IMG/VR virus record: IMGVR_UViG_3300006752_006525
Location: 33,320-97,319 of that record
Length of the DNA stretch: 64,000 nucleotides
Strand: one strand, 5' to 3'
DNA from: a virus
Numbering within the stretch: position 1 is the first letter of the stretch; every line of letters begins with the position of its first letter. Shown one piece after another: positions 2,369 to 38,383 of the stretch. Made by a program: the position numbers and the translations under genes. The notes below the pieces were generated by a model. That model ran no database searches and was not told the origin of the DNA. It saw nothing but the letters and a program-made list of their open reading frames with translations.

Positions 2369-2387
2369 GTTACACAAGGAGACACAG

Positions 2388-2552: not shown

Positions 2553-2555
2553 GAT

Positions 2556-2969
2556 ATGCCTATTAATAGACGAAGTATTATACTAATGAGTGCCAGTGGC
2601 ACAGAGATGAATCAGTATTCAGACACTGTGAAAGGTGATAGTTACTATGGCTACACTGACGGATACCACACAATTCAAGTAACATACGATCAATTTATAG
2701 GTAGATTGCGAGTACAAGCAACTCTAATGCTAGAGCCAACTGACGACGATTGGTTTGATTTAGTACCTTCCGAGTCAACAGGCACTACATTTAATCCATT
2801 AGGTTACATTCAATACAACGCAAATGACCCAGCAAGTAAGTCAGAAGCATACTCCTTCAAAGGAAATTACGCCTATATACGTATCTACATGGACAGAGAG
2901 CATGTAGGTGACGGCGAAACCTACGATACCTCATACGGACAAGTTAGTCGAATAGTCTTATCTAGTTAA
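2556..2969 (+). CDS. hypothetical protein, probable virion structural (beta-rich)
   Basis: Late operon position next to large structural genes. Confidence 0.6.
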   Translation: MPINRRSIILMSASGTEMNQYSDTVKGDSYYGYTDGYHTIQVTYDQFIGRLRVQATLMLEPTDDDWFDLVPSESTGTTFNPLGYIQYNANDPASKSEAYSFKGNYAYIRIYMDREHVGDGETYDTSYGQVSRIVLSS

Positions 2970-2972
2970 AGT

Positions 2973-2980
2973 GATAAATA
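2973..2980 (+). promoter_or_regulatory. late promoter GATAAATA
   Basis: Intergenic TAAATA upstream of the 3015 fibre gene. Confidence 0.65.
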
Positions 2981-3014
2981 GTTGTAATATCACTTAAACT
3001 GAGATAGGACATAT

Positions 3015-6842: not shown

Positions 6843-6854
6843 TAGGAGATTTGC

Positions 6855-8888
6855 GTGGCTTTGATTAACTACAAGTCTAGTCAAATTAAACTTAACTATC
6901 CAAATAAAGTATTGGCAGTTAATGTAACAAGCATTGCTGGTAGAGACTACTGGCAACATGCCAACGGTTCCAGCGACCCTTGGTACTCAGGTTCAAGTTC
7001 TCCAAAGTATTATCGTTGGGAAATCACATTCACTGTAACTGCACAAGGACACGGTTCTCACTTAACCAGAGATGATAGAACATACAACGGTTTAGATATT
7101 GTTGTAGGTGATTGGGTAGGCAGTGCAACAGCAGGTATTTGTTGTAAAGTAATCAGCATCACAAGTAAAACTTCCACAGAAGTAAGTTGTATTGTAGAAG
7201 ATTGGTTACGTTATAATACTTTTGCAAACTCCACAGGTAATGGTATATTTGGTTTAGGTTCAGCCGCAGTGTTCTCATTGAATGAGAATGGTGTGCCAAT
7301 GCTTGATCCTCTACCAACCACAGTATCCAGTTCATTCTATGCAACTGTGATGAGTAGATTCCAATACTTAAATCCGCAAACAAACTATGTGTTAGAACAA
7401 ACAGCACACGGTTTTGACAAAGGTGATGTTGTAGTAGTTACCAGTAGTGGATTCTCAAAAGCAAATTCAACTACATTAAGTAAAAGTATTGGTGTGGTAA
7501 CAGAGCCTGGTCCAGGACCAGATCAGTTTATGATATTACCTAACAACAGGATCATTGACTTTGAACCACGCATACCAGGAACACAAGGCCAATATGTTTA
7601 TGTAGACACTGATGGTGACTTAACAACCAGCGAAACAGATGCCCCAACATTTTTAGTTATACAACCTGCAATAGAAACTTTACTAGAAGGTGACCAAGAT
7701 GGTCCTGAGATACCTCATGGACATACTGTAACAATAAATGGTTACGACACAGTTATCAGTGCAGGAGCAGGTTCAGGTAATGCAAACGTAAGTGAAATAG
7801 TTTCAAGCATTAACAGTCACACTGCAAATCATAATGTTGTAGCAAGTACAGTTGCAACAAAGACTGTGATAAATTCAGACCCAAGTGGTACAGTGTACGG
7901 ACTCGTAGGTGGCTTTACGCCATTCAGTGCCGCAATAGATAGTGGTAGTGGTAACACAACAATTAATTTTACAACCAATGCCGCAGGTCAAGCCGCATAC
8001 AGTCAAGCAGTTGCTATTCCACAAGACATGGCAACAGACATTAATGCCGCTGGTATTGCAAACTTAACTGCTACATATAATTCAGGTACATTAACATTAA
8101 CAGAAACAAATGGTAATGCTGTTACTATAGTTAATGTAACCAATGATTCTAACAATAATCCTTATGTTGGTGCTGGTAATATATCAGGTTTGCCAGCAAG
8201 TGTAGCCGCACCTGGAACAGAACGTATTAATCTCACACGCAGTGACGGTGGTGAGATATTAATTTTTGAAAGCACAGAATTCTTTAGAGTGAACACAGGT
8301 ATTGCAAGTGGACACACAGGAATGTATCCATTAGCACTCAACGTTGAACAAGGTATCAGAGGTGGTACTGTTAAAGTGGTTGCAGATGTCAGTGCAAGAA
8401 ATGCATTGAATGCACAGGTTGGTGACCAGGCACATGTATTAAGTGCCGACGATGGTGAATGGGCACTGTACTTATATGATGGTTCAAGTTGGGTTAAGAT
8501 ATCTGACAGAGATAGCAGTACAACAGATGCTAGAACACTCACAACAACATTCACAATGCCAGTGGGTGGCTTTGGTGTTAGCACAACAAACTTACTTGGT
8601 AACATATCACCCGGTGGTAAAATTGTTAGTGTTGCTGTAGAAATTAACACAACATTCTCAGGACACAGTGGTGGTGAACCAAACATTGAAGTTGGTACAC
8701 TAGCAGACCCAGATGTGTATTGTGACTCACCAAGTAATGACTTAACTGAAAGTGCAGGTGACACTTTCTTATGTCAACCAGAGTATGTGTGGCCTTCAAC
8801 ACAGACACAAGATTTAGAAGTGAGAGCACGTTGTAATCACTACAATGCAAGTGCTGGAAGTGTCACTGTCATATTAACATACGTTTAA
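6855..8888 (+). CDS. virion structural protein, 677 aa (GTG start)
   Basis: AGGAG RBS, cotranscribed with the fibre gene, T/S/G-rich beta-type sequence. Confidence 0.7.
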   Translation: MALINYKSSQIKLNYPNKVLAVNVTSIAGRDYWQHANGSSDPWYSGSSSPKYYRWEITFTVTAQGHGSHLTRDDRTYNGLDIVVGDWVGSATAGICCKVISITSKTSTEVSCIVEDWLRYNTFANSTGNGIFGLGSAAVFSLNENGVPMLDPLPTTVSSSFYATVMSRFQYLNPQTNYVLEQTAHGFDKGDVVVVTSSGFSKANSTTLSKSIGVVTEPGPGPDQFMILPNNRIIDFEPRIPGTQGQYVYVDTDGDLTTSETDAPTFLVIQPAIETLLEGDQDGPEIPHGHTVTINGYDTVISAGAGSGNANVSEIVSSINSHTANHNVVASTVATKTVINSDPSGTVYGLVGGFTPFSAAIDSGSGNTTINFTTNAAGQAAYSQAVAIPQDMATDINAAGIANLTATYNSGTLTLTETNGNAVTIVNVTNDSNNNPYVGAGNISGLPASVAAPGTERINLTRSDGGEILIFESTEFFRVNTGIASGHTGMYPLALNVEQGIRGGTVKVVADVSARNALNAQVGDQAHVLSADDGEWALYLYDGSSWVKISDRDSSTTDARTLTTTFTMPVGGFGVSTTNLLGNISPGGKIVSVAVEINTTFSGHSGGEPNIEVGTLADPDVYCDSPSNDLTESAGDTFLCQPEYVWPSTQTQDLEVRARCNHYNASAGSVTVILTYV

Positions 8889-20716: not shown

Positions 20717-23398
20717 ATGAGTTACGTAGACGCCTTCTACGATAAGCAGAAAGATCTTATTCGCGTTGTCGAACGTATAAACGGACAACGTCTGCTAGTG
20801 GAACACAAACCCGAATACAATTTTTATGTTGCCGATCCGAGAGGTTCGCATAGAAGTATCTATGGCGAGCCAGTTGCAGAAATTCGCTGTAAGAATATCA
20901 AAGACTTTCGCAAGAATGTTGCTATCAATAAAACAAACAAAACGTTTGAAACTGATATCAAGCCTGTAAATAAAACATTAGCAAAGCATTATCTCAATGC
21001 TGATATCCCTAAACTACATACTGCATTTTTAGATATCGAGGTAGACTTTGATCCACAACGTGGATACAGTTCACCCGAAGATGCATTCATGGAGATCACA
21101 TCTATTGGTGTGTACTTACAGTGGATGGATGCTATGGTGTGTTTGGCTGTTCCGCCTAAGACACTTAGTTGGGGTCAAGCACAAAACGTTGCCAGTGAAT
21201 TGCAAGAAGTAATACTGTTTAAGACTGAGAAAGAAATGCTACAAACATTTCTCAACCTCATAGAAGATGCAGACATACTGAGTGGTTGGAACAGTGAGGG
21301 CTATGATATTCCTTATATTGTAAATAGGATTATCAAGGTACTGGGCAAAAGTGAATTACGTAAACTTTGTTTGTTTGATCAACTGCCAAAGCAGAGAACA
21401 TATGAAGCATTCGGTAGTGAGCGTGAGACATATGATTTAATTGGTCGTGTACACTTAGACTATATGCAACTGTATCGCAAATACAACTATGAGGAACGAC
21501 ACAGTTACAGGCTGGACTACATTGGTGAGATGGAAGTAGGTGAGAAGAAGGTAGCCTATGAAGGTAGTTTGGACAGGCTTTATAATCATGACTTCAAACT
21601 GTTCTTAGAATACAACATCCAAGACGTTATGCTGTTGGATAAACTAGATAAGAAACTACAGTTTATTGACTTAGCAAACACTATTGCACATGATAACACA
21701 GTGCTATTGCCAACCACAATGGGTGCTGTGGCAACAACAGAACAAGCAATTATCAATGAAGCACACAGACGTGACTACATTATTCCAGACAGAGATCGCA
21801 GTGAGCGAAAGAACACACAGGCGGCAGGTGCTTATGTTGCGTTCCCCAAGAAAGGTTTTCATGAATGGGTAGGTAGCATGGACTTAAACAGTCTGTACCC
21901 TAGTGTGTTCAGAGCATTGAATATGGCACCAGAGACTATTGTAGGGCAACTGAGACAAGACTACACTGAAGAAGAAATCATAAACAAGCAGACACTGGAA
22001 AAGAAATCATTTGCAGATGCATGGTTAGGTAAGTTTGGTAGCAATGAATATGAAATGGTCATGGGCAAAGACGTTAACCACACAATGCATTTGGATATGG
22101 AAGATGGCTCAACTGTAGAAGTTACAGGCGCCGATGTTTACAACTTAGTTTTTAATAGTGGGCAACCTTGGAATATCAGTGCTAATGGTACAATATTCAA
22201 AACAGACTTCCAAGGTATTGTTCCAGGCTTATTGGAGAGATGGTATGCAGAAAGAAAAGAGTTACAAGCAAACAAAAAGAAAGCAACCACAGATGCCGAC
22301 ATTGCATTTTGGGATAAGCGACAGTTGGTCAAGAAGATTAATCTTAATAGTTTGTATGGTGCTATTCTCAATCCTGGTTGTAGATTCTTTGACAAAAGAA
22401 TCGGTCAATCCACAACACTTACTGGACGGGCCATTACCAAACACATGGGAGCAGAAACAAACAGAATGCTTACAGGAGTGTACGATCATACTGGCGACAC
22501 TATAGTATATGGTGACACTGACTCTGTGTACTTTACTGCAACTCCAGCATTAAAAGAAGGACAGACATTAGATATGGAGAGTGCAATTAATTTGTATGAC
22601 CACATCTCAGATAGTGTTAGTTCTACTTTTCCTAAGATGCTGAAGGAACAATTTAACGTACCTTATGAACAAGGTGCAGTTATGCAGGCAGGTAGAGAAG
22701 TAGTTGGTAGGTCAGGTTTGTTCATTACCAAGAAGCGATATGCAATCAAGTGTTTAGACATTGAGGGATATCAACCTGAGGGTGGTAAACTAAAGATCAT
22801 GGGCATGGACATCAAGCGAAGTGATACGCCTGAGTTTATACAAGACTTCTTAGAAGAAGTATTAGATGATGCTCTTGATGGTAAGCCTGAAGATGAAGTA
22901 TTGGATAAGATTAGAACATTTAAGAAAGGCTTCCAAGAACTAGATCCTTGGTTAAAAGGTATGCCTAAACGTGTAAACAACTTAACAACATACAGTGAGA
23001 AACTTGCAAAGCAACGTAGAGTCGAAGCAAACAACTACAAGTTAAAACGTCTCACAGACATGGCACCAGAGAACAATATGATACCTGGACATGTTAGAGC
23101 AAGTATAAACTGGAACGAACTTAAAAATGCACACGGTGACAACTACAGTATGACTATCATGGATGGCATGAAAGTGATTGTGTGTAGGCTTAAAAATAAT
23201 CCTATGGGTTACTCAAGTATTGCATATCCCACAGATGAAATGCATATACCTGAATGGTTTAAGGATTTGCCGTTTGATACTGAAGCAATGGAGCAGGCAG
23301 TATTGGATAAGAAGATCAGCAATGTACTAGGTGCAATGAATTGGGATCTCAAACGAATTAACGAAAGTGAGGCCTTACAAGCCTTCTTTGAATTTTAA
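20717..23398 (+). CDS. family B DNA polymerase (T4 gp43-like)
   Basis: Exo motifs FLDIEV, GWNSEGYDIPY, YNIQDV. Pol motifs SMDLNSLYPS, KKINLNSLYG, YGDTDS, KKRYA. Confidence 0.97.
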   Translation: MSYVDAFYDKQKDLIRVVERINGQRLLVEHKPEYNFYVADPRGSHRSIYGEPVAEIRCKNIKDFRKNVAINKTNKTFETDIKPVNKTLAKHYLNADIPKLHTAFLDIEVDFDPQRGYSSPEDAFMEITSIGVYLQWMDAMVCLAVPPKTLSWGQAQNVASELQEVILFKTEKEMLQTFLNLIEDADILSGWNSEGYDIPYIVNRIIKVLGKSELRKLCLFDQLPKQRTYEAFGSERETYDLIGRVHLDYMQLYRKYNYEERHSYRLDYIGEMEVGEKKVAYEGSLDRLYNHDFKLFLEYNIQDVMLLDKLDKKLQFIDLANTIAHDNTVLLPTTMGAVATTEQAIINEAHRRDYIIPDRDRSERKNTQAAGAYVAFPKKGFHEWVGSMDLNSLYPSVFRALNMAPETIVGQLRQDYTEEEIINKQTLEKKSFADAWLGKFGSNEYEMVMGKDVNHTMHLDMEDGSTVEVTGADVYNLVFNSGQPWNISANGTIFKTDFQGIVPGLLERWYAERKELQANKKKATTDADIAFWDKRQLVKKINLNSLYGAILNPGCRFFDKRIGQSTTLTGRAITKHMGAETNRMLTGVYDHTGDTIVYGDTDSVYFTATPALKEGQTLDMESAINLYDHISDSVSSTFPKMLKEQFNVPYEQGAVMQAGREVVGRSGLFITKKRYAIKCLDIEGYQPEGGKLKIMGMDIKRSDTPEFIQDFLEEVLDDALDGKPEDEVLDKIRTFKKGFQELDPWLKGMPKRVNNLTTYSEKLAKQRRVEANNYKLKRLTDMAPENNMIPGHVRASINWNELKNAHGDNYSMTIMDGMKVIVCRLKNNPMGYSSIAYPTDEMHIPEWFKDLPFDTEAMEQAVLDKKISNVLGAMNWDLKRINESEALQAFFEF

Positions 23399-23422
23399 TC
23401 GAAAAAAATGGATAAATTTATC

Positions 23423-23450
23423 TTGACTTTTCTAAATAATAGTGTACAAT
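23423..23450 (+). promoter_or_regulatory. sigma70-like promoter TTGACT-N16-TACAAT with nested CTAAATA
   Basis: Near-consensus hexamers with a late motif in the spacer. Confidence 0.6.
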
Positions 23451-23457
23451 TAGACTT

Positions 23458-23706
23458 ATGCCAGAACCTAAACAAGTAAAACAAGCATTCTACGAAGCAT
23501 TAACTGATACAGGTATTGCGGCCGTAGTTAACATACCACTAAACTTTGTGTTAGTGTATTTGTGTATTGATGTATGGCAAGTAGGTACTATGTGGACTAG
23601 TGTTATTATGACAACTTTGTTCACGGCGTATGCTATTATACGTAAGACAATAGTTAGACTATATTTTGAACGTGAAGCAATTAAGAAACAAGCCAAAGTA
23701 ATTTAA
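23458..23706 (+). CDS. small 2-TM membrane protein
   Basis: Two hydrophobic helices. Confidence 0.65.
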   Translation: MPEPKQVKQAFYEALTDTGIAAVVNIPLNFVLVYLCIDVWQVGTMWTSVIMTTLFTAYAIIRKTIVRLYFEREAIKKQAKVI

Positions 23707-23715
23707 GGAGATAAT

Positions 23716-24471
23716 ATGGCAGATAATTATATCAAAGATACATTGCGAGATGTATTAAGGCATACCCATAACTTGGGTATTTTTGAAATGGTAAAGATCA
23801 AAGGCAGTGTTGAATCAACTGACATTGAAACTGTTGATGCAGAAAAGACTGTGATCTTAAAAGGTAACACAATTAATCCTGTGCCAGACTTTGTTGATGC
23901 AACAGTAGGTCTAAGCAGAATGGGTGTGTTAGATGGTTACTTGAAGTTTCCAGGCTTTGATGATGAGGCGGCCACAGTGCAAGTTGTTACACAAAATCGT
24001 AACGATGAAGATGTGCCTGTTGAAGTTGAATTTGTTAGTCCTGAAGGAACAGATGCACACTACAGATTTATGTTAGCAGATGTTGTTAACCAGCAACTAA
24101 AAGACATCAAGTTTAAGGGTGCAGAGTTCGATGTAAACATTGTGCCTAGTGCAAAGATGCTTAAAGATCTAAGTTACTTCAACAGTGTAATTGGTGCATT
24201 TGAAACTAACTTCTCGCCAAAGACTGAAGACAATAAGTTGTATTTCTACATTGGTGATGAAGGCAGTGACAGAACTAAAGTACTTGTTGCTGATGGTGTT
24301 GATGGCGACATCAAACATGACTTCCGTTGGAACTTAGATATTGTACTTAAGATTTTACGTTTAGGTGACAATTCAAATGTTGTTATGAGTTTTAATGCAC
24401 AAGGTCTATGTCAAATTGTTGTTGACAGTGGACTAGGTGTATACACTTACTTACTACCAGCAAGGAGTTAA
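23716..24471 (+). CDS. DNA sliding clamp (gp45/PCNA-like)
   Basis: 251 aa, acidic, two-domain beta/alpha pattern ending YTYLLPA, next to the polymerase. Confidence 0.7.
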   Translation: MADNYIKDTLRDVLRHTHNLGIFEMVKIKGSVESTDIETVDAEKTVILKGNTINPVPDFVDATVGLSRMGVLDGYLKFPGFDDEAATVQVVTQNRNDEDVPVEVEFVSPEGTDAHYRFMLADVVNQQLKDIKFKGAEFDVNIVPSAKMLKDLSYFNSVIGAFETNFSPKTEDNKLYFYIGDEGSDRTKVLVADGVDGDIKHDFRWNLDIVLKILRLGDNSNVVMSFNAQGLCQIVVDSGLGVYTYLLPARS

Positions 24472-24473
24472 GT

Positions 24474-26033
24474 ATGGATTTAGGCAAGAGACAGAGAGAC
24501 TATGCAGTTTATCTCCCTGCGATTAGTAGTTTCTATGTAAAACAAGTAGACAAGATTGTGAACAAAGTTCCACAAGACAGCAGAACTCCTGCAGGCTTTG
24601 AACACGGTAATGAAGGTCTTGACTTCCTAAAGCCTAAAGATACATACTATCATTATCCTTGGGGTCTATATTCTGCAGGTCATGCTCATTTAGACATTGA
24701 CAAAAGTCATGCCGATGAGCCAATGATACAAGACAGAGATAGAAATGACACATTAATTTTAGGTGACAGTGGTGGATTCCAAATTGCTACTGGTGTACTA
24801 AAACTAGATTGGGCTAACGCAAAGGATCCACTTGATCCTGCTCGAACTGCGATCTGCGAGAAGATATTGCGTTGGCTCGAACACACCGCAGATTGGAGTA
24901 TGACACTTGATATTCCAGCATTTGCCGCAGTTGAGCCTCTCAGCAGTAAAACTGGGTTGACATCTTTTGATGATACATTAGATATCAGTCTACTAAACCT
25001 GGACTACTTTGTTCGTAATCGAGTACCAGGTGCAACCAAGTTCCTTAATGTATTAAGTGGTACAGATGAGGCCACAAGTAAAACTTGGTATGAAGCAGTT
25101 AAGAGCTTCAGTCAACCGCAGTTTACTGCTGACGCATACGGTGATGCCAATAGGGCATTAGAAGGATATGCCTTTGCTGGTATTAACATGAAAGACCTTA
25201 GTTGTGTCTTGAATAGGTTACTAGACTTGCGTGAAGATGGATTACTAGAAGGCAAGGATTGGATACACTTCCTTGGTACTGGTAAACTACAATGGGCCTG
25301 TTTCCTAACCAGCATTCAGAGAATGTTACGACAGCACGATAACCCAAACATTACTTTGAGCTTTGACGCGGCATCACCGTTTGTGAATACAGCATATGGA
25401 CAAACGTATGCACATAACTTTTTTGAGCCTGGTAAGTTTGGTTACTTTATGGACAGAGCATTTGATCAACAAGAACTTGTTGGTAGTGATTTGCCTGCTC
25501 CGTTTGGCCACAGTCCTATTATGGAAAGGCTTACAATGGGAGACCTATGTTCAATGGGTCCAGGTGCTCAGGACAAGAACGGTAACTACAAGTTCAGTGA
25601 AGGACAACCACTTACAGATAAGCATGGTGAGCCTAAACTAGATGCAGAAGGCAATCAGTTGTATGCAGAACGTGACAGCACTACTTGGGACACACAAAGT
25701 TATTTGTATTACATGGCTCACAGTGTGTTCAATCACATTGACGCAGTACAAGAAGCAAACAGACTTGCTGACGTAGAACGTACAAGAGAATCAGTACACT
25801 ATACACAGTGGCGTAAACCTACAAAGAAAAGCAGTAAAGCACAAGAGGTATCACCTTACGTGCCAGTTAACTTGTTCTTCTTTGATAGTTTTGTTAAAGA
25901 TGTATTAGACCCTGCGTGTAGTGAACCGAGAAAACTAATCAAAGACTACAAGGAAATGTTAGATTCATTCAGTGTAGGCGGCGAAGCAGAAGATACTAAA
26001 GAAGAGGTGTTAAATGAGTTTTTTGAATTTTAA
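24474..26033 (+). CDS. dpdA: DpdA-like 7-deazaguanine DNA transglycosylase (TGT fold)
   Basis: TGT motifs LGDSGGFQ, MTLDIP, LNVLSG, IHFLGTG, SFDAASP; clustered with folE and queE. Confidence 0.75.
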   Translation: MDLGKRQRDYAVYLPAISSFYVKQVDKIVNKVPQDSRTPAGFEHGNEGLDFLKPKDTYYHYPWGLYSAGHAHLDIDKSHADEPMIQDRDRNDTLILGDSGGFQIATGVLKLDWANAKDPLDPARTAICEKILRWLEHTADWSMTLDIPAFAAVEPLSSKTGLTSFDDTLDISLLNLDYFVRNRVPGATKFLNVLSGTDEATSKTWYEAVKSFSQPQFTADAYGDANRALEGYAFAGINMKDLSCVLNRLLDLREDGLLEGKDWIHFLGTGKLQWACFLTSIQRMLRQHDNPNITLSFDAASPFVNTAYGQTYAHNFFEPGKFGYFMDRAFDQQELVGSDLPAPFGHSPIMERLTMGDLCSMGPGAQDKNGNYKFSEGQPLTDKHGEPKLDAEGNQLYAERDSTTWDTQSYLYYMAHSVFNHIDAVQEANRLADVERTRESVHYTQWRKPTKKSSKAQEVSPYVPVNLFFFDSFVKDVLDPACSEPRKLIKDYKEMLDSFSVGGEAEDTKEEVLNEFFEF

Positions 26034-26382
26034 GAATCCTTTTAAGAAGACTGTTAAAGTTAATGGTTTAATAAAAGGCGATGTCCAGATGTTTGATAAT
26101 GCTATTAGACAATGGCATCATGATAGAAATTTAATTGATGGTAGTACTGATAAAGATCAAGTACTTAAATTAATGCAGGAGTTAGGCGAACTGTCTGATA
26201 ATTGTTGCAAGGGTAAAGACATGCGTGATGACCTAGGTGACATGATGGTAGTAATGCTTAATATTATGGAACGCAATGGCTACTCATTAGAAGGTTGCCT
26301 TGCACAGGCATATGGTGACATCAAAGACCGTAAAGGTAAAATGGTAGATGGTATCTTTGTCAAGGAAGAAGACTATCTATGA
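26014..26382 (+). CDS. MazG-like nucleotide pyrophosphohydrolase
   Basis: QVLKLMQELGEL…DDLGDMMVV…AY..IKDRKGKMVDGIFVKE. Confidence 0.85.
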   Translation: MSFLNFKNPFKKTVKVNGLIKGDVQMFDNAIRQWHHDRNLIDGSTDKDQVLKLMQELGELSDNCCKGKDMRDDLGDMMVVMLNIMERNGYSLEGCLAQAYGDIKDRKGKMVDGIFVKEEDYL

Positions 26383-26567: not shown

Positions 26568-26749
26568 AAACTATCAGAGCAACTATCACAGTAGAAATTC
26601 CGTACAGTAATGAACTTATGAACTATGGTGATAAGTTGAGCGATAAGTTAAAGCAAGTAATTGCAGATACAGATTTTATATCACACGAAACTCAGGCAGG
26701 TGATTTACAACCTTGTACAAGACCAGTTATAAGAGTAACAGATGAATAG
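26564..26749 (+). CDS. hypothetical protein
   Basis: ATGA overlap coupling. Confidence 0.6.
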   Translation: MKTIRATITVEIPYSNELMNYGDKLSDKLKQVIADTDFISHETQAGDLQPCTRPVIRVTDE

Positions 26750-27254
26750 AGAAGGACACACAATAGACACAAAGTTCTTTATAGGCACTGAAGTAGAGCA
26801 TAGCCCTGCTTATGGTCAGAGAACATTGTTTGTTATTGGACCACAACCTTACAAAGAAGTATTAGCAAGGGCATTGAATAATAACTGTCCTCACATATAC
26901 TTAGGTGCTAATCAAAGTTTTGACATCAGCACAGAACATGCTAAACAAGAATGGGACTTTATGTTAAACAAACTTGTAGTTGATACAGGTATTTGGGTAA
27001 CACTTGACTTTGATGTAAAACATGTTGAATGGGTACTCGATAGTGGTATGACAGAGTATAACACTTTTATACCAATGATGAGTTGTAAGTTACCATTTAT
27101 AAATCAATTAGGATACAATGCATGTCTCAAATTAGATGACATGGATTTCAAAGCAACAAACCCAGGTGTATGGACACACAGAGTACACGACTTGATGGAT
27201 AGGAAAGTATTCACCGATTGGACCAAGTACACCAAAGATGAGGTAATAGAGTAA
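26742..27254 (+). CDS. hypothetical alpha/beta protein in the deazaguanine region
   Basis: Enzyme-like motifs (GTEVEHSP, TLFV, HIYLGANQSF, ATNPGVW); family not recognised. Confidence 0.7.
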   Translation: MNREGHTIDTKFFIGTEVEHSPAYGQRTLFVIGPQPYKEVLARALNNNCPHIYLGANQSFDISTEHAKQEWDFMLNKLVVDTGIWVTLDFDVKHVEWVLDSGMTEYNTFIPMMSCKLPFINQLGYNACLKLDDMDFKATNPGVWTHRVHDLMDRKVFTDWTKYTKDEVIE

Positions 27255-28985: not shown

Positions 28986-29167
28986 TGGCAATATCAGATG
29001 AAATGAGAGAACAACTTGAACAGGTTGTTCAGTATGGTGATCAAATCAAAGCAATGTTTGCAGAACAAGACGACGTTGACTATGAGATTGGTGACTACGA
29101 TGAACCTATCACACAACTGCTAGGACACATGAATGAAGTCATGGAATCAATAGACGGAGGTTGGTAG
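28985..29167 (+). CDS. small acidic hypothetical protein
   Basis: TAATG coupling and AGGAGG RBS. Confidence 0.6.
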   Translation: MAISDEMREQLEQVVQYGDQIKAMFAEQDDVDYEIGDYDEPITQLLGHMNEVMESIDGGW

Positions 29168-29598
29168 TGAGAAGTATTTGGGTAACGTTTACTAAAGAGG
29201 GTATTCACAAGTACCCTGCCGCCTTAGATGATCCTAAGTTAGCAACAGGCGATTGGGACGATGTATCCTTTTTAGGATATCCACATAGACACACCTTTCA
29301 CTTTAAGGTGTGGCTCGAAGTGTTCCATGATGACAGAGACGTAGAATTTATACAGTTTAAGAGATGGATGGAAAGACTGTATGCACAAGACACATTGCAA
29401 TTAGATTACAAGAGTTGTGAAATGATTGCAGACGATTTAGCGAGTGAGATACAAGCAAAGTATCCTGATCGCTGGATTAAGATTTCGGTAGCCGAAGATA
29501 ATGAAAACGGTTGCGAAATGGAGTATCCAATAAATTATATGGATGGTCCAAACTTTGATGCTGATGGTATCGAAGAAGTATTTGATAGTCTAAAATAA
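29161..29598 (+). CDS. dpdL: T-fold QueD paralogue with LxxxHRHxF motif (DpdL-like CDG decarboxylase candidate)
   Basis: FLGYPHRHTFHF, DRDVEFI, SCEMIA, EDNENG. Lacks the QueD CxxxHGH motif. The DpdL motif match is recalled from the phage deazaguanine literature and needs an HMM check. Start may be GTG 29167. Confidence 0.55.
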   Translation: MVVRSIWVTFTKEGIHKYPAALDDPKLATGDWDDVSFLGYPHRHTFHFKVWLEVFHDDRDVEFIQFKRWMERLYAQDTLQLDYKSCEMIADDLASEIQAKYPDRWIKISVAEDNENGCEMEYPINYMDGPNFDADGIEEVFDSLK

Positions 29599-29954: not shown

Positions 29955-31163
29955 ATGAGAAAACTGTTTTATATGGGACTTGAGTCCTACGAGGCACGAT
30001 ATACACTTCAGTTACAAGACTGGAATGAACGAGTATTCAAACGCAGAGGCATTGACTATGAGATCATTACAGGTGAAGAGCTGGATAACAGCAAGGCTAT
30101 TGTAACAGGTAGTGTGTTAGATGCACATGGGCGTTCCTATTACAGTTTGTCTCAGACTATGAACCTTGTTCAAATGATGAAGAACGGCGAACTAACAAAC
30201 GAGGATGTTATCTTTTATGAAGATATGTTTACTCCTGGTATTGAATGTTTGCCTTACATCATGGATCAGTCACCGCCAGAATACAGACCCAAAGTGTATT
30301 TGCGTTTCCTTGCACAAACTACAGACCCAGATGACTTCCTTATTAGAGAAGGAATGTTCCACTGGATGCGTAAGTATGAGGAAATGGTAGATCACGTAGT
30401 AAGTGGTATTATGGTAGCGAATGAAGAGTTTGCCGCACACTTGCGTATTGCTGGATTGTTAGCACCTATTTATGTAACTGGCTTGCCATATGGTAAAGAA
30501 GAAGTACAAGGTAGGGTTGATCACAGCACACCATTGCATAAAAGAAAGAAGCGTGTAGCCTTTGCCGCACGTTGGGATGACGAGAAGCAACCTAACTTCT
30601 ATATGGATCTTGCAGAAGCATACTACAAGATTGATCCTGAAGTAGAGTTTGCAGTATTTTGCGGACACCCAGAACTAAAGAGCAACAGGCAAGAGTATGT
30701 TGATAGGGCATTAGCCTATGAAGGTGGTCACAACAGACTCGGTGATGCAAACTTCAAAGTCTACACAGGCTTAAAGAAGAATGACTACTATAATTTACTT
30801 GCAGACAGCCAGGTGCTGTTCAATTGTGCATTGCAGGATTGGACCAGCAACACTGTAAGTGAAGCGGATACCATGGGGGCATTAACACTGTTTCCTGCTT
30901 ACAGAAGTTTCCCAGAAGTATTTGCAAATAACCATAACCACTTGTATGCTCCTTGGAGTATTGATGATGCAGTAAACAAATTGCAGAATATGTTTGCCAA
31001 CATCGAAGCCAAAGACCTCAGTGGTTATAACTTAGGAAAAATATCAGACTACCAGAATGGTACTATCGATAGAACGTTAGATATTATGATGGGCAACGGA
31101 GAGCAATATGCAAGGAACGAATGGGACTTCCGTAGACATGTTGCTATAAACAAATATGAGTGA
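29955..31163 (+). CDS. GT-B fold glycosyltransferase (GT4-like)
   Basis: FAARWDDEKQP, YYNLLADSQVLFN.ALQD…SEA…G…P…SFPEV donor-binding pattern. Confidence 0.75.
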   Translation: MRKLFYMGLESYEARYTLQLQDWNERVFKRRGIDYEIITGEELDNSKAIVTGSVLDAHGRSYYSLSQTMNLVQMMKNGELTNEDVIFYEDMFTPGIECLPYIMDQSPPEYRPKVYLRFLAQTTDPDDFLIREGMFHWMRKYEEMVDHVVSGIMVANEEFAAHLRIAGLLAPIYVTGLPYGKEEVQGRVDHSTPLHKRKKRVAFAARWDDEKQPNFYMDLAEAYYKIDPEVEFAVFCGHPELKSNRQEYVDRALAYEGGHNRLGDANFKVYTGLKKNDYYNLLADSQVLFNCALQDWTSNTVSEADTMGALTLFPAYRSFPEVFANNHNHLYAPWSIDDAVNKLQNMFANIEAKDLSGYNLGKISDYQNGTIDRTLDIMMGNGEQYARNEWDFRRHVAINKYE

Positions 31164-32124
31164 AGCAAAAACAATCTTAGTAACAGGAGGTAGCGGATAC
31201 ATTGGTGGGCAAGTTTGTCGACTACTTGTAGATGCAGGCCACAATGTTATTAACGTAGACAGGCGTAAGAGCGACATACCAGGTGTTACACTATATCCTT
31301 TCGATATAGATAACCACCAACTAAAAGGTGTTATCCAACTTACAAAGCCAGATACCATTATGCACTTTGCCGCAGACCATGAAGTTGGTCGTAGCATGAG
31401 TGAACCAGGAGTGTTCTATTGGAACAACGTGGCTAACACTATTGCATTGTTAAATCATGCAGTAGAGGCTGGTGTACAGAACTTTATCTTTAGCAGTTCA
31501 AGTTCAGTGTATGGGGATATAGATAACTTCCCAACCACAGAAGACACACCAAAGTCACCTGTTAGTTCTTATGGAATGAGCAAAAGTATTATTGAAGATA
31601 TACTACCAGACTATAAACGAGCATACGGTCTTAACTATGCCGCTCTGAGGTACTTCAATGCCGCTGGTGCAAGTCCAGACAACACACATGGTTACATGCA
31701 AGAAAAGGCTTCTCACATTGTCCCAATCATTAGCAGAAAGATACTTGCTGGTGAAGTTGTAGAAGTGTTTGGTAACGACTATAACACAGAAGATGGTACA
31801 TGCGAACGTGACTACACTCACATGTTTGACATTGCCACAGCACATTTGGCCGCTGATTACTACCTGTCTGATGGTGGAGAAGGTGGCATATTTAACATTG
31901 GTGCAGGTAACAGCATGAGTGTTTTACAAGTAATAAATGCATTTGAAAGAGTGCTAGGCAAAACTGTACACTATGAATTTGTACCAAGACGTGATGGTGA
32001 TGCACCTAAGACGTTTGCAGACAACACAAAGGCACGTGAAGCATTTGGTTGGACTCCAATGTTTGGTTTAGATGAAATAGTTGAACATTCGTTTGCATGG
32101 GAAGAGAAGAACTTTAAGAAATGA
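31156..32124 (+). CDS. galE: UDP-glucose 4-epimerase
   Basis: ILVTGGSGYIG, HFAA…VG.S, FSSS..VYG, YGMSK, LRYFNAAGA, DGTC.RDY, RRDGD. Confidence 0.92.
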   Translation: MSEAKTILVTGGSGYIGGQVCRLLVDAGHNVINVDRRKSDIPGVTLYPFDIDNHQLKGVIQLTKPDTIMHFAADHEVGRSMSEPGVFYWNNVANTIALLNHAVEAGVQNFIFSSSSSVYGDIDNFPTTEDTPKSPVSSYGMSKSIIEDILPDYKRAYGLNYAALRYFNAAGASPDNTHGYMQEKASHIVPIISRKILAGEVVEVFGNDYNTEDGTCERDYTHMFDIATAHLAADYYLSDGGEGGIFNIGAGNSMSVLQVINAFERVLGKTVHYEFVPRRDGDAPKTFADNTKAREAFGWTPMFGLDEIVEHSFAWEEKNFKK

Positions 32125-32588
32125 ATAGTTACGAATATATAAGTCAGGACTTAATGAAAACGTATTACAAATCTGTAATACAAAAGATGGCACAAAGCAA
32201 TTACAAACCAGATTTGGTTATAGGGTTACTTCGAGGTGGTGCTGAGATGGCTGTGAATTTCAGTCACTACTTTGATGTACCTTGTGAAATTATCAAGTGG
32301 CAGTTACGTGACAGCAACAAAGATATTGATAAAGAATTACTTGCTGAAATTATAAAAAGCAATTCGCATTCTAATATTTTAGTTGTAGATGATTTGTGTG
32401 ACACAGGTGCGGCATTACAAGGCGTTGATGATGTCTTCTCTGATGCACACTTCTTAGGTGATGTTTCCTATGCTGTATGTATAGAAAACATTGATAATGA
32501 TTTCAACATTGATTTTACTGCTAGACAGATTAGTAGAAATGTTGATGAACAATGGTTTGTATTTCCATGTGAGAGTTGGTGGTTATGA
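32121..32588 (+). CDS. type I phosphoribosyltransferase (xanthine/guanine PRT-like)
   Basis: VIGLLRGG, PRPP loop ILVVDDLCDTG, C-terminal WFVFP.E. Confidence 0.85.
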   Translation: MNSYEYISQDLMKTYYKSVIQKMAQSNYKPDLVIGLLRGGAEMAVNFSHYFDVPCEIIKWQLRDSNKDIDKELLAEIIKSNSHSNILVVDDLCDTGAALQGVDDVFSDAHFLGDVSYAVCIENIDNDFNIDFTARQISRNVDEQWFVFPCESWWL

Positions 32589-32848: not shown

Positions 32849-33538
32849 ATGAAAAAACATGAAGAAGTAGCCAAAAGGTTACAAGAAAGTAACACTCGTT
32901 ACTGGGCCGGAGATAACATCTCACAACATCTTGAAGAAGGTGACAAACAAACATTAATAGAAGAAGCCACAGTAGCATTTGAAAATGTGCTAGACACGTT
33001 GGTTATCGATAGACACAATGACCCTAACAGCATGGGCACAGGCAAACGTCTTGCTAAAATGTATATCAATGAACTAATGGCAGGACGTTATGATCCAATA
33101 CCACCTGCAACTGCTTTCCCTAACGACAGTGCTGATAGGTATGAAGGCATGTTGGTTGTGCGTAGTGAGCTCACAAGTATGTGTTCACATCATCACCAGA
33201 TCGTTAAAGGTGTTGCATACATTGGTATCATTGCCAGTGAGAAACTAATTGGACTAAGCAAGTACACAAGGATTGCACAGTGGTGTGCAGAGCGTGGTAC
33301 ATTGCAAGAAGAACTTGCTAACGACATCGTTAGAGAGATTCAGAAAGCAACAGGCACAGAGAACTTGGGTGTATACATTCAAGCCACACACGGTTGTGTA
33401 GAGAACAGGGGTGTTAAAGCACACAGTAGTCTCACACAAACAACTGTATTAAAAGGTGCATTCAAAGATGACCCAGCAACTAAGAAAGAGTTTATGGACA
33501 ATATTAAACTACAACAATCATATGCGTGTGATAGATAA
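32849..33538 (+). CDS. folE: GTP cyclohydrolase I
   Basis: SMCSHH, GLSK..R, LQEEL, ATHGC…RGV motifs. Confidence 0.95.
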   Translation: MKKHEEVAKRLQESNTRYWAGDNISQHLEEGDKQTLIEEATVAFENVLDTLVIDRHNDPNSMGTGKRLAKMYINELMAGRYDPIPPATAFPNDSADRYEGMLVVRSELTSMCSHHHQIVKGVAYIGIIASEKLIGLSKYTRIAQWCAERGTLQEELANDIVREIQKATGTENLGVYIQATHGCVENRGVKAHSSLTQTTVLKGAFKDDPATKKEFMDNIKLQQSYACDR

Positions 33539-34071: not shown

Positions 34072-34964
34072 GCAACGTACCTATTAAATATTCTGAGACA
34101 TTTTACTCAGCACAAGGTGAAGGCCAGTACATAGGCATACCCAGTTTGTGGATGCGATTCTTTTTGTGTAACTTACAATGTAATGGCTTTGGACAAGCAG
34201 ATCCTACTAATCCTGATACATATGAATTGCCATTTGAGGAGATTGATATATCTGATATAACAGATGTACGTGATCTTCCTGTGTTCGATAAAGGCTGTGA
34301 TAGTTCGTACACATGGAGTAGAAAGTACAGGCATCTTATTACTAACAGAAGTATCAAAGAAGGAGTTGATGAGCTCACAGAACTACTGCCACATGGCAAG
34401 TTCCAGAACCCTGTTACCAAACAATGGGTACACATGGTGTTTACTGGTGGTGAGCCATTACTCCATCCTACACAACCTGGTATCATTGGCGTACTAAATG
34501 AATTCAAAGAGCGTGATAACTTCCCTAACAATGTCACAGTTGAAACAAATGGTACACGTGAACTAAGTGATGATTTGTTTTACTACATACAAAACAACTT
34601 CACAGATGTAACTGGCAGAGAATGGTTTTGGTCGTTGAGTCCTAAGTTATGGAGTACTGCTGGAGAAAAGCATAAACGTGCTATTAAGCCTGAGTTTGTT
34701 GCTAAGTATGCAAAGTGTACACCACACGGTCAGTTAAAGTTTGTAGTAAACGGAAGTGAGGAGAGTTGGCGTGAAGTCGAAGAGAACACAAAAGCATTTC
34801 GTGATGCTGGTTGCGATTACCCTGTTTGGATTATGGGGGTCGGTGGCACCTTGGAAGGACTCAAGGTCACTGAAGCAGACATTGCCGATGAGGCCATCGC
34901 CAGAGGATATTATTACTCCAGCAGGGTCCACGTTCATATATACGGCAATGCTATAGGCAAGTAA
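34068..34964 (+). CDS. queE: 7-carboxy-7-deazaguanine synthase (radical SAM)
   Basis: E.FYS.QGEG..IG.PS…RF..CNLQC…CDS, FTGGEP, ETNGT, SLSPK, LKFVV, RVHVHIYGN. Confidence 0.9.
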   Translation: MSNVPIKYSETFYSAQGEGQYIGIPSLWMRFFLCNLQCNGFGQADPTNPDTYELPFEEIDISDITDVRDLPVFDKGCDSSYTWSRKYRHLITNRSIKEGVDELTELLPHGKFQNPVTKQWVHMVFTGGEPLLHPTQPGIIGVLNEFKERDNFPNNVTVETNGTRELSDDLFYYIQNNFTDVTGREWFWSLSPKLWSTAGEKHKRAIKPEFVAKYAKCTPHGQLKFVVNGSEESWREVEENTKAFRDAGCDYPVWIMGVGGTLEGLKVTEADIADEAIARGYYYSSRVHVHIYGNAIGK

Positions 34965-35515
34965 TGTTTAGATATATTGAGAATGTATTTGATGAAACAA
35001 TACTAAATCGCTTTTACAATAAGTATTTTCAAATACTTGATAGCGATCTCAATAGCCACGACATTTGGGCAGACAGTGCAACAAAGAATAAAACACTGCC
35101 CGAATGTTTTACAAGCAACCTAACAACACAAGAACGTTATGAACTCATAGAGTATTTGTACTCTACACCAACTTCACCTTTCCACCAAGACAACCGAATA
35201 CGTAATTGCGATGTAGCAATACAAAAATTGTTGCCAAATTGTAGCATACCAAAACACACAGACACTTGTATAGGCAGTATGACGGTGTTCATGAACAAAG
35301 AGTATGACACTTCTAATGGCGGACAGTTTGTTTGGTATGACCCGGAAGTAGAAAAAGTGTCATACTCTGTGATACCAAAATGGAACTGTGCCGTGTGGAG
35401 TTATAACAGCGGTATAGAGCATGAGGTTACCACAGTAAACCAACACAATAGAATCACAATGCAGTTTTTTATATGGGACAATAAAAAGGATGCGAAAGTC
35501 CAAGTCAAAAGTTGA
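34964..35515 (+). CDS. 2OG-Fe(II) oxygenase
   Basis: HTD…GG.F…HEVT.V…RITMQ (HxD…H…R). Confidence 0.8.
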   Translation: MFRYIENVFDETILNRFYNKYFQILDSDLNSHDIWADSATKNKTLPECFTSNLTTQERYELIEYLYSTPTSPFHQDNRIRNCDVAIQKLLPNCSIPKHTDTCIGSMTVFMNKEYDTSNGGQFVWYDPEVEKVSYSVIPKWNCAVWSYNSGIEHEVTTVNQHNRITMQFFIWDNKKDAKVQVKS

Positions 35516-37393: not shown

Positions 37394-38383
37394 ATGGCTA
37401 ATTATATTCTTGTAGACAGTTTGAATATGTTTATGCGAGCCAAGCACGTTGGTGGTGGCAAGGACATAGACATGCGTGTAGGTATGGCTATGCACATCAT
37501 GTTCAACAGCATTAAGAAGTGTTGGAAAGACTTTAATGCTGATCATGTTGTATTCTGTTTAGAAGGACGTAGTTGGCGTAAAGACTTTTATCCTCCATAC
37601 AAAGCAAACAGAAAAGTTACTGCTGACAAACGTAGTCCACGTGAGATTGAGGACGACGAGTTATTCTTTGAAGCATATAATGATATGATTACTTTCTTTG
37701 CAGAAAAGACTAACTGTAGTGTAATACGTGTTCCTAATGCAGAAGCAGACGATCTTATTGCAACATGGGTACAACAACACCCCAACGATAATCATGTTAT
37801 TGTTAGCACAGACAGTGACTTTTATCAGCTCATAGCACCTAATGTAACGCAGTACAACGGCACTACGGATCAGATAGTTAGTCTTGCTGGCTTTCTTAAT
37901 GCTAAAACAATGGAAAGAGTGGTAGATAAAAAGACAGGCAAAGAAAAAGAATTACCCGACCCAGAGTGGTTGCTGTTTGAGAAATGTGTTAGGGGCGATA
38001 GCAGTGATAATGTATTCAGTGCATACCCTGGTGCTAGAAAGAAAGGCAGTAAAAATAAGACTGGTATGCTAGAAGCATATGAAGATAAAGAGCGAGGCGG
38101 TTTCAACTACAACAACTTCATGTTACAGCGATGGGTCGACCATGAAGAAGTTGAGCATAGAGTGAAAGATGATTACGAACGCAATCGCACACTTATTGAT
38201 CTCACACAGCAACCTGATGATATTAAAGAAGCATGTATAAATATTGTCAATGAAGCAAAGCAATCAGAGCCCACAACAAACGTTGGTATACACTTTATGA
38301 AGTTCTGTAACAAGTGGAACTTACAAAGACTTAGTCAAGCACCAACAGAGTTTGGAGAGATATTTAGTAAACAGATTACATAG
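37394..38383 (+). CDS. 5'-3' exonuclease / T4 RNase H-like flap nuclease
   Basis: ILVDS.N, SWRK..YP.YKANR, EADDLIA, IVSTDSDFYQL, GDSSDNV. Start reassigned to 37394. Confidence 0.92.
   Translation: MANYILVDSLNMFMRAKHVGGGKDIDMRVGMAMHIMFNSIKKCWKDFNADHVVFCLEGRSWRKDFYPPYKANRKVTADKRSPREIEDDELFFEAYNDMITFFAEKTNCSVIRVPNAEADDLIATWVQQHPNDNHVIVSTDSDFYQLIAPNVTQYNGTTDQIVSLAGFLNAKTMERVVDKKTGKEKELPDPEWLLFEKCVRGDSSDNVFSAYPGARKKGSKNKTGMLEAYEDKERGGFNYNNFMLQRWVDHEEVEHRVKDDYERNRTLIDLTQQPDDIKEACINIVNEAKQSEPTTNVGIHFMKFCNKWNLQRLSQAPTEFGEIFSKQIT

Follow-up and report, generated by a model that had tools for sequence, protein, structure and literature searches.

A DpdA-like predicted DNA transglycosylase of a giant marine phage shares a tail peptide with the DNA polymerase and is predicted to dock on the sliding clamp

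Genes at the locus

The window, that is, the whole 64,000-nt stretch of DNA analysed here, belongs to the 97-kb contig of an uncultured giant marine phage and encodes a DNA polymerase and a transglycosylase-type enzyme that end in a common tail peptide (Table 1). This order of polymerase, clamp, and transglycosylase genes was retained in ~160 related viral loci in IMG/VR, and 138 of 143 unique enzymes have a clamp ORF at their locus.

Table 1. Features of the polymerase-clamp-transglycosylase locus and its surroundings
Feature	Positions	Strand	Basis or remark
Family-B (T4 gp43-like) DNA polymerase, 893 aa	20717..23398	+	Pfam DNA_pol_B 6.4e-37; exonuclease domain 2.4e-20; phrog_262 3.4e-206
Small membrane-like protein, 82 aa, DUF7220-like, between polymerase and clamp genes	23458..23706	+	PF23858 8.9e-6 (below cut-off); phrog_4276 2e-7
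Sliding clamp, two-domain PCNA/gp45-type protomer, 251 aa	23716..24471	+	AF2 fold and Foldseek
TGT-fold (DpdA-like) predicted DNA guanine transglycosylase, 519 aa	24474..26033	+	Folded core, residues 1 to ~500
Disordered acidic linker and terminal peptide, residues 502-519, GGEAEDTKEEVLNEFFEF	25977..26030	+	Predicted clamp-docking peptide
MazG-like nucleotide pyrophosphatase	26014..26382	+	phrog_715 7.8e-34; phrog_1992 2.2e-35; first ATG overlaps last 20 nt of transglycosylase gene
DpdL homologue	29161..29598	+	BLASTP 32% identity, E 5e-16, to Cellulophaga phage phiST CGPG_00067
GTP cyclohydrolase I (FolE), first step of 7-deazaguanine synthesis	32849..33538	+	Pfam PF01227 8e-37
QueE-like radical-SAM enzyme (7-carboxy-7-deazaguanine synthase)	34152..34964	+	phrog_2076 1.1e-39; weak Pfam Radical_SAM match

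The clamp protein had no Pfam match, no sequence match in the PDB, and no detectable similarity to any solved clamp, and it matched phrog_12062, which is labelled 'unknown function'. Its AF2 model (pLDDT, 92.3) displayed a beta-alpha-beta pattern that recurs, once in residues 1-125 and again in 140-251, and at least 500 Foldseek matches were obtained at E≤0.001, with the top matches listed all being PCNA sliding clamps (best E, 1e-11; TM, 0.60-0.72). Structure prediction therefore agreed with a sequence-only reading of this DNA, in which the gene had been called a clamp and the enzyme gene had been placed 2 nt downstream of it, a spacing that is evident from the clamp stop codon (TAA, 24469-24471) and the next ATG (24474). 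An AAGGAG ribosome-binding site lies within the end of the clamp gene. A clamp loader is encoded on the same contig (G000:C1:23679-24590; E, 7e-85), and clamp-loader genes were also present in three relatives. The homologues of the clamp in phages PA5oct and Phosso are annotated as a virion 'structural protein' from mass spectrometry, an annotation that counts against the clamp-docking explanation developed below.

The enzyme and its 7-deazaguanine neighbourhood

No family model in Pfam (including PF01702, TGT), PHROG, or NCBIfam matched the enzyme or any of 60 homologues, and its profile reached an E-value of only 0.11 against PDB TGT sequences. The TGT fold proposed in the sequence-only reading was supported by structural comparisons and by a profile alignment: a confident AF2 model (pLDDT, 92.9), Foldseek matches that, among those listed, were all tRNA-guanine transglycosylases (prob, 1.0), a VIA-align Z of 20-21.5 against TGT over ~305 residues (rmsd, 4.4), and an hhalign match to E. 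coli Tgt (prob, 89%; E, 2.4e-6). The latter alignment paired GDSGGFQ, DWSMTLD, and SFDAASP of the enzyme with LTDSGGFQ, DIVMIFD, and MFDCVMP of Tgt, placing D146 and D298 in catalytic motifs, while D98, S99, G101, D146, H265, G268, and D298 were invariant in the 60 homologues. The DSGGFQ motif, D146, and SFD298 of the enzyme line up with the catalytic residues Asp89 (DSGGFQ) and Asp143 and the nucleophile Asp264 (MFD) of E. coli Tgt. The best explanation of these data is that the protein, ~140 residues longer than bacterial Tgt (519 versus ~375 aa), belongs, as a distant member, to the tRNA-guanine-transglycosylase superfamily.

The genes for FolE, QueE, the DpdL homologue, and MazG are all located at most 10 kb from the enzyme gene; the DpdL of phiST (CGPG_00067) is a predicted 7-carboxy-7-deazaguanine decarboxylase. 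Among 84 related loci, a dpdL homologue was found in 73. For folE and queE the numbers were 39 and 30, both limited by flank length, and no QueC was found in the stretch examined. The 7-deazaguanine context assumed in the sequence-only reading is thus well founded, with the qualification that DNA, not tRNA, as the substrate and the identity of the inserted base were inferred from this context only.

It remains conceivable that the protein docks on the clamp without inserting deazaguanine into DNA: it could act in repair or proof-reading in the manner of a glycosylase, work on tRNA, or regulate the clamp as a non-catalytic protein with a TGT scaffold. The absence of a matching curated family model, the unusual length, and the nonexistence of enzyme activity data would all be compatible with such a role, as would a merely marginal tie to DpdA3 of phiST, which was aligned by hhalign over 83 columns (prob, 59%; E, 9e-5) and was not recovered when the phiST and CP220 genomes were searched with the profile of the enzyme (A2). 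The tblastn match lists were disjoint. We consider this role unlikely in view of the invariant aspartates shared with Tgt, the association of the gene with dpdL, folE, and queE, and the G-specific restriction resistance of phage PA5oct. The DNA of PA5oct resists cutting at G-containing restriction sites and behaves as G-modified (PMC12191111), which is only indirect evidence for base exchange.

The shared tail peptide and the sliding clamp

Direct reading of the translations confirmed that the polymerase and the TGT-fold protein carry the same terminal peptide, preceded in the enzyme by an acidic linker, as the sequence-only reading had reported. The polymerase ends in SEALQAFFEF, of which ALQAFFEF occupies the last 8 codons (23372-23395), and the enzyme ends in GGEAEDTKEEVLNEFFEF, closing with VLNEFFEF, so that L-x-x-F-F-E-F is common to both ends. 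The identity is one of protein sequence; in the DNA, 20 of the last 27 nt agree. Following a confidently modelled core, residues 505-519 of the enzyme had pLDDT values below 50 in the AF2 model. When stop-to-stop ORFs of at least 40 aa were scanned, the FFEF ending was found in these two proteins only, among 575 ORFs of the window and 862 of the whole 97-kb contig. The polymerase tail is presumed to be a clamp-binding peptide.

A related motif, [FYW]xx[LFMI][FWY], was present in the last 70 aa of 100 of 143 unique homologue tails, compared with 16 of 861 control windows of 70 aa taken from the folded part, which excludes a chance origin of the motif; most of the remaining tails bear a relaxed form of the polymerase-type peptide. 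Among polymerase homologues, 109 of 119 tails contained the motif in their last 14 aa. The terminal residues of the window's enzyme align with an F-x-x-L-F peptide in 76 unique homologue tails. The sequence-only reading had proposed to check homologues for a conserved terminal LxxFF; the peptide proved to be conserved, although mostly not at the terminus: in most lineages the enzyme peptide is internal and is followed downstream by a second conserved acidic motif, suggesting that the enzyme tail holds other docking sites. In three relatives (L114, L131, and L160) the old peptide site has decayed and the motif appears at the new C-terminus. The polymerase-type peptide was absent from the enzyme tails of one subgroup (L089-L091, L094, L097, L101, and L104), indicating that clamp tethering is not universal in the enzyme family.

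Structure prediction with three clamp copies and enzyme residues 470-519 placed the tail in the canonical clamp pocket, with an ipSAE of 0.67 versus 0.07 for the best control. Of 80 solved complexes 58 attained the mark, as did 2 of 110 mismatched pairs. The runs agreed in at least 85% of contacts, with a partner pLDDT of at least 57, and the modelled interface comprised clamp residues 44-47, 129-136, 203, 229-231, and 246-251 and enzyme residues 506-519. Clamp tethering, which the sequence-only reading had inferred, is accordingly backed by a controlled prediction and by no binding measurement. Of the three conditions which that reading had named as refuting it, namely a tail not conserved in homologues, no clamp binding, and no clamp fold, none turned against the idea, the second being judged by prediction alone. 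The prediction relied on alignments of our own making and on three clamp copies, unlike the calibration of the tool, and the score may be inflated by memorisation because the model resembles many solved PCNA-peptide complexes.

In the modelled complex, clamp residue 231 contacts F516, the variable position of the peptide. Residue 231 is Leu in all 8 loci where the polymerase and the enzyme both have F-F; in 69 loci it is Ala, and there every known polymerase tail has L-F while the enzyme carries L-F, M-F, or a comparable pair, L015 being the only exception. On the enzyme-core tree, the triple change of residue 231, polymerase tail, and enzyme tail arose twice, once in the clade of the window and once in L013, which has Ala/LF/LF sisters in L054 and L057; the covariation therefore rests on two independent events only. 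Coevolution of the peptide with the clamp was observed, as were the conservation of the peptide, the sequences, folds, and catalytic motifs, and the gene context.

The peptide might instead dock on another partner common to the polymerase and the enzyme, such as a single-strand-binding protein, a helicase/primase, or a replication-compartment scaffold. This option draws on the fact that the link between peptide and clamp rests on prediction only, on the second acidic motif of most homologues, and on the discussion of T4 tails in connection with more than one gp45 site and with other partners (PMC2988020). We regard it as quite improbable, given that the peptide is of the kind seen in the T4/RB69 clamp-binding tails, that the clamp gene lies between the two client genes in ~138 of 143 loci, that the canonical pocket receives the peptide in the model while no control exceeds 0.07, and that the predicted contact residue 231 covaries with both peptides. 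The idea that the likeness of the two tails is a coincidence or by-product, arising from low-complexity acidic/aromatic ends, from constraint by the overlapping MazG start, or from recent gene conversion, is scarcely tenable: it can appeal to only four to five identical residues, to the overlap with the first MazG ATG, and to the 20 of the last 27 nt that are the same in both genes, but on sequence comparison it is refuted in practice by the conservation data, namely the restriction of the ending to two of 862 ORFs, the ~37-fold enrichment of the motif in homologue tails over the folded part, its homologous position in 76 unique sequences, its move to a new C-terminus where the old site decays, and its encoding by different codons, since in relative L025 the 9-mer NTFGSLFSF is identical in both genes but uses different serine codon families (AGT/AGC versus TCA/AGT), which excludes recent DNA copying of the peptide.

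Proposed mechanism and comparison with known systems

Taken as a whole, we find it reasonably likely that a deazaguanine DNA transglycosylase docks via a polymerase-type tail peptide on the phage's PCNA-like clamp. The tail feature is real and would add a further client to a docking system that is already known, with binding, DNA substrate, and replication coupling being inferred. The enzyme is proposed to exchange guanine in DNA for a deazaguanine base, serving the phage's 7-deazaguanine DNA-modification pathway. From its folded core a disordered acidic linker leads to the L-x-x-F-F-E-F peptide, the same as at the end of the phage's T4-type polymerase, and the peptide is predicted to insert into a hydrophobic pocket of the phage's own clamp, built from the interdomain connector loop, the clamp C-terminal tail, and the second domain, as the C-termini of gp43, gp55, and gp33 do on gp45. 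A trimeric clamp has three such pockets, and the enzyme could therefore ride the polymerase's ring or rings left on the newly made duplex and so become concentrated on freshly replicated DNA. The enzyme thus probably uses the clamp as its dock and carries out the modification as replication proceeds, the binding being predicted and not measured. Physical binding, a DNA rather than tRNA substrate, timing relative to the fork, and the terms 'processively' and 'nascent DNA' used in the sequence-only reading are inferences only.

A bolder proposal, which we offer tentatively and with some doubt, is that 7-deazaguanine insertion is built into the replisome in a large group of jumbo phages, with the enzyme on one clamp pocket and the polymerase on another, or the enzyme on clamps left on nascent duplex. 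The second acidic motif of most lineages might then dock a further replisome partner, and base exchange would be co-replicative, not 'post-replicative'. If true, co-replicative insertion could explain the very high or complete guanine replacement in some phages.

A clamp-docking peptide offers a concrete and testable mechanism, recruitment by the replication clamp to newly replicated DNA, for the question of how a transglycosylase finds and converts a large share of the guanines of a 300-kb genome within one infection cycle; parallels for such recruitment are DNMT1 and UNG2 with PCNA and, in T4, late transcription with gp45. In addition, the analysis assigns clamp and transglycosylase identities to two proteins of PA5oct-like jumbo phages that now bear 'structural' or 'hypothetical' annotations. 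Because PA5oct is cultured, the peptide can be mutated there, and the three-way covariation of clamp residue 231, polymerase tail, and enzyme tail names a specific contact that can be tested.

The known DpdA DNA guanine transglycosylases comprise bDpdA and DpdA1-4, with DpdA3 in Cellulophaga phage phiST and Campylobacter phage CP220, and deazaguanine insertion has been described as post-replicative without mention of a clamp (PMC6884629, PMC10516641). In line with the sequence-only reading, which was aware of no such description, we found no paper linking DpdA enzymes to a sliding clamp in a search limited to an open-access library. The window's enzyme resembles DpdA in its TGT-superfamily fold and catalytic aspartates, and its locus resembles that of phiST in the gene set beside the enzyme (FolE, QueD/QueE, DpdL, and MazG), the adjoining polymerase gene, and the lack of a QueC in the stretch examined, whereas the enzyme is twice as long as phiST DpdA3 (CGPG_00065; 519 versus 259 aa). 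The nearest cultured relatives are PA5oct gp316 (QCG76197.1, 'hypothetical protein') and gp314 (QCG76195.1, 'structural protein'), which share 50.6% (enzyme) and 42% (clamp) identity with their counterparts in the window. PA5oct shares the polymerase-clamp-enzyme order and a nearby QueE but differs in that its peptide, FNSLF, is internal, lying 35 residues from the end and followed by an acidic LTELEQGL motif; a homing endonuclease splits its polymerase, whose end reads SLFGW.

The hydrophobic-acidic C-termini of T4 gp43, gp55, and gp33 bind gp45, are interchangeable, and function when made internal (PMC2988020), and an RB69 clamp-peptide co-crystal is cited in the same review. As with these gp45 clients, the polymerase and a non-polymerase protein have in common a short hydrophobic-acidic peptide, which follows a flexible linker and is predicted to bind a hydrophobic pocket on the clamp's C-face, the clamp being of the trimeric two-domain type. 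Unlike T4 and RB69, however, the predicted client in the window is a DNA base-exchange (hypermodification) enzyme rather than one that polymerises DNA or serves in transcription, no sequence similarity could be detected between its clamp and those with solved structures, and the LxxFFEF peptide of the window's clade is close to the eukaryotic PIP-box core. PCNA PIP-box clients that modify or edit DNA behind the fork, such as DNMT1 and UNG2, likewise have an L-x-x-F-F core and a shared geometry of the pocket. In both settings a DNA-modifying or base-excising enzyme is, or would be, tethered to the replication clamp such that new DNA is processed at once, but DNMT1 and UNG2 are eukaryotic host enzymes performing methyl transfer or uracil excision, whereas the phage case would be one of viral counter-restriction through exchange of an entire base.

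A terminal peptide shared by polymerase and enzyme

The DpdA-like enzyme and the family-B polymerase of this phage end in the same peptide. The sequence-only reading, which had noted this together with the start of the enzyme gene just past the clamp gene, was correct as written: the ORF ends are as read, 2 nt separate the clamp stop from the enzyme start (with an AAGGAG ribosome-binding site within the 3′ end of the clamp gene), and an FFEF terminus is found on only these two of the 862 ORFs of the contig. The contig (97 kb, about 27% complete by CheckV estimate, the window being its last 64 kb) comes from a large group of mostly marine jumbo phages, the nearest cultured kin being Pseudomonas PA5oct-like (enzyme identity, 50.6%), and megablast gave no match of the region to GenBank phages.

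Features of the replication and modification region (window positions)
Feature	Position	Strand	C-terminus
Polymerase, family-B, T4 gp43-like	20717-23398	+	...SEALQAFFEF
82-aa membrane-like protein	between polymerase and 251-aa ORF	+	
251-aa ORF (clamp)	23716-24471	+	
519-aa ORF (enzyme)	24474-26033	+	...GGEAEDTKEEVLNEFFEF
MazG-like pyrophosphatase	downstream of enzyme gene	+	
170-aa ORF	26742-27254		
402-aa ORF, epimerase, phosphoribosyltransferase and oxygenase genes	29955-32588 and 34964-35515		
RNase H/FEN	37394-38383		FGEIFSKQIT

The RNase H/FEN protein was considered as a third carrier of the peptide and rejected, since its homologues end in YAEPLNARY instead and its tail is therefore not the shared motif; a looser C-terminal pattern revealed no further credible clamp client among the other contig ORFs. 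Counted from its first ATG, the MazG-like ORF shares positions 26014-26033 with the enzyme codons for the terminal LNEFFEF. This start, and hence the overlap, is uncertain because the PHROG match begins only at ORF residue 29 and the ORF has another Met at residue 26. In PA5oct, the polymerase gene (L001, 1-4831) is interrupted by a gene for a Hef-like homing endonuclease, and the polymerase also occupies two ORFs in several IMG/VR relatives (L008, L021, L038).

Clamp, transglycosylase and deazaguanine genes

Searches of Pfam and PDB sequences gave no match for the 251-aa protein, which belongs only to an unnamed PHROG family. Its structural model (pLDDT, 92.3; alignment of 34 homologues) had at least 500 Foldseek matches at E ≤ 0.001, and the top ones listed were all PCNA-type sliding clamps (best E, 1e-11; TM, 0.60-0.72), bearing out the earlier assignment of this gene. 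A clamp-loader gene is present on the same contig (E, 7e-85), as well as in PA5oct and two near-complete relatives. By its predicted fold, the product is the replicative sliding clamp of the phage. Clamp homologues of PA5oct (L001:4912-5658) and Sinorhizobium phage Phosso (L002:5205-5927) carry the annotation 'structural protein', which in PA5oct derives from virion mass spectrometry; the label reflects either carry-over of an abundant protein or genuine packaging of the clamp.

The enzyme had no family match in Pfam, PHROGs or NCBIfam. All Foldseek matches listed for its model (pLDDT, 92.9; 60 homologues; final 15 residues disordered) were tRNA-guanine transglycosylases (prob, 1.0), to which VIA-align superposed about 305 residues (Z, 21; rmsd, 4.4), in agreement with the TGT fold that had been proposed. 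Profile-profile alignment with E. coli Tgt (prob, 89%; E, 2.4e-6) paired the enzyme motifs GDSGGFQ, DWSMTLD and SFDAASP with DSGGFQ, DIVMIFD and MFDCVMP, which we take to hold Asp89, Asp143 and the nucleophile Asp264 of Tgt, and the matching enzyme residues D98, D146 and D298 do not vary among 60 homologues at identities down to 27%. The enzyme is far from the described DpdA subfamilies: against DpdA3 of Cellulophaga phage phiST, the hhalign probability was only 59%, and an HMM profile of enzyme homologues found no match in the phiST or CP220 genomes. With phiST DpdA3 as the query, no homologue was found in the T4-like phage CP220.

The 7-deazaguanine context implied by the sequence-only reading was also recovered. 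Within 10 kb downstream of the enzyme gene, besides MazG, lie genes for GTP cyclohydrolase I (FolE), QueE, a DpdL homologue (32% identity, E 5e-16, to phiST DpdL), a sugar-nucleotide (GalE-like) epimerase, a phosphoribosyltransferase and a 2OG-Fe(II) oxygenase, and a dpdL homologue accompanies the TGT-fold gene in 73 of 84 related loci. QueC was not found in the stretch examined; because the contig is only part of the genome, neither QueC nor QueD can be called missing from it. This set of FolE, QueE, DpdL and MazG beside the polymerase, with no QueC found here in that stretch, matches the layout reported for phiST, in which DpdL is a predicted CDG decarboxylase and guanine is fully replaced by 7-deazaguanine in the DNA (PMC10516641). 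At several restriction sites that contain G, PA5oct DNA is resistant, and modification of its G has been reported (PMC12191111); a deazaguanine synthesis and incorporation system has been noted computationally in this phage (PMC7824862). Given the gene context, the co-occurrence of dpdL and the reported guanine modification of PA5oct, the enzyme is most readily interpreted as a DpdA-kind DNA guanine transglycosylase, an activity that is inferred; in the absence of biochemistry, a TGT-fold protein that binds the clamp but has some other activity is not ruled out.

The 170-aa ORF, for which no family match was found, has homologues in 75 of the 84 related loci, as often as dpdL, and could belong to the modification module as a component not yet characterised. 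Inside the deazaguanine block, a 402-aa ORF without a confident family match accompanies the epimerase, phosphoribosyltransferase and oxygenase genes, a hint that the base may be elaborated further, possibly by glycosylation.

Predicted docking and conservation of the tail

Complex prediction with three clamp copies and enzyme residues 470-519 scored 0.67 versus 0.00, 0.01 and 0.07 for three controls, a mark reached by 58 of 80 solved complexes and by 2 of 110 mismatched pairs; runs agreed in at least 85% of contacts, with a partner pLDDT of at least 57. Peptide 506-519 was modelled against clamp residues 44-47, 203 and 229-231, the interdomain connector (129-136) and the C-terminus (246-251), a site that in the model is the canonical PIP/gp43-peptide pocket. 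The proposed binding of the tail to the clamp is supported here by prediction only, and because many such complexes have been solved, the high score may owe something to memorisation of known structures by the predictor. Five of the 19 interface residues (F133, G135, G230, P248, A249) were at least 90% conserved versus about 18% of all columns; since enrichment was unclear, pocket conservation is not counted as evidence.

Covariation at clamp residue 231, which contacts enzyme F516 (the F/L position) in the model, is independent of the complex score; the contact itself comes from the model. This residue is Leu in nine loci of the F-F type, where polymerase and enzyme are both F-F in all eight with a readable polymerase tail, and Ala in 69 loci of the L-F type, with one enzyme exception. 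A tree built from the enzyme core without its tail shows two origins of the triple change, one in the window's clade (sister L007, Ala/LF/LF) and the other in L013, which falls within Ala/LF/LF sequences and is separated from L054 and L057 by very short branches. Without a shared interface, it is difficult to account for three proteins changing in concert at a predicted contact; two events are few. A different partner common to polymerase and enzyme remains possible, but it is disfavoured by the gene order, the complex model and this covariation.

Docking on the clamp is the preferred reading. Conservation of the tail was followed across relatives in two IMG/VR scans; these yielded some 160 loci, with 143 unique enzyme tails, at identities between 91% and about 30%. 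When distant representatives were the queries, single-protein scans returned no locus (P0279, P0265) or one (P0264), and an alignment-based scan succeeded. The polymerase-clamp-enzyme order is kept, with a clamp ORF in the locus for 138 of the 143 enzymes. Polymerase termini are T4-like, typically NTF(G/N)xLF(S/D)F(E/D), and 109 of 119 tails contain [FYW]xx[LFMI][FWY]. A polymerase-type peptide occupies the homologous position in the enzyme tails, directly after the last helix; the strict motif occurs within the last 70 residues of 100/143 enzyme tails versus 16/861 equal windows of the folded part, and most other tails, including the LxxFF of the window, have a relaxed form. In L025, NTFGSLFSF is identical over nine residues in both proteins and encoded by different codons. 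Chance and gene conversion are excluded as sources of the likeness by these counts, the homologous position, the different codons and the rarity of FFEF among the contig ORFs.

The expected conservation of the tail held, except for its terminal position, which is confined to some clades, the window's included. The majority of lineages have the peptide at an internal site, and after it comes an acidic extension of 25-40 residues that bears a second conserved motif; in T4, such peptides remain functional when internal (PMC2988020). Many distant enzymes from a library of 1.8 billion proteins end in LFEF, LFDY, MFAFN, LFG and similar.

The second motif, amphipathic and within the last 25-40 residues of L016-L083 and L092-L167 (e.g., D[LF]xNPDDDxLRxLEE, PWTDDREDxELDKLE, LDxLExE), may be a further docking peptide of unknown partner; the window enzyme is without it, its subclade having lost the motif. 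Enzymes of L089, L090, L091, L094, L097, L101 and L104 carry no L-F peptide and have GMDADNxxxMDFxDF-like ends, and the polymerases of this subgroup still end in NSFNDLFSF. In L114, L131 and L160 the usual site is degenerate, and the motif appears to have relocated to a new hydrophobic peptide at the extreme C-terminus (EDLWENN, NSLWEI, NDSLFEF). In Vibrio phage 2.275.O (L003), a distant relative (35% identity), the polymerase (1303-4302) ends in NNTDLFDW and the enzyme (5908-7698) in NNNDLFGW, a form of the shared terminal peptide that is particular to this lineage, with QueF, QueC and GTP cyclohydrolase genes adjoining. The 'TGT domain-containing protein' of Vibrio phage GR7B was no useful comparison, as its tail is lysine-rich and no homologue of the window polymerase was found in that genome.

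Proposed mechanism and comparison with known systems

In the mechanism that we infer, the tail would hold the enzyme on the trimeric clamp, next to the polymerase or on clamps that have stayed behind. The enzyme would thereby be enriched on freshly synthesised duplex DNA and could there exchange guanine for the deazaguanine base supplied by the neighbouring pathway. Binding and base exchange are both part of this inference; what has been shown comprises the sequences and their motifs, the two folds, the gene context, and the conservation and covariation. A processive reaction, as the sequence-only reading had envisaged, or a strictly co-replicative one would go beyond the data here.

The docking system itself is the known one of the T4/RB69 gp45 clients, and the enzyme itself is of the known DpdA kind. 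The DpdA literature describes deazaguanine insertion as post-replicative (PMC6884629, PMC10516641), and no paper joining a DpdA-kind enzyme with clamp docking was found in the open-access literature searched. On these grounds we rate the combination of a known docking system with a known kind of enzyme as new within that literature.
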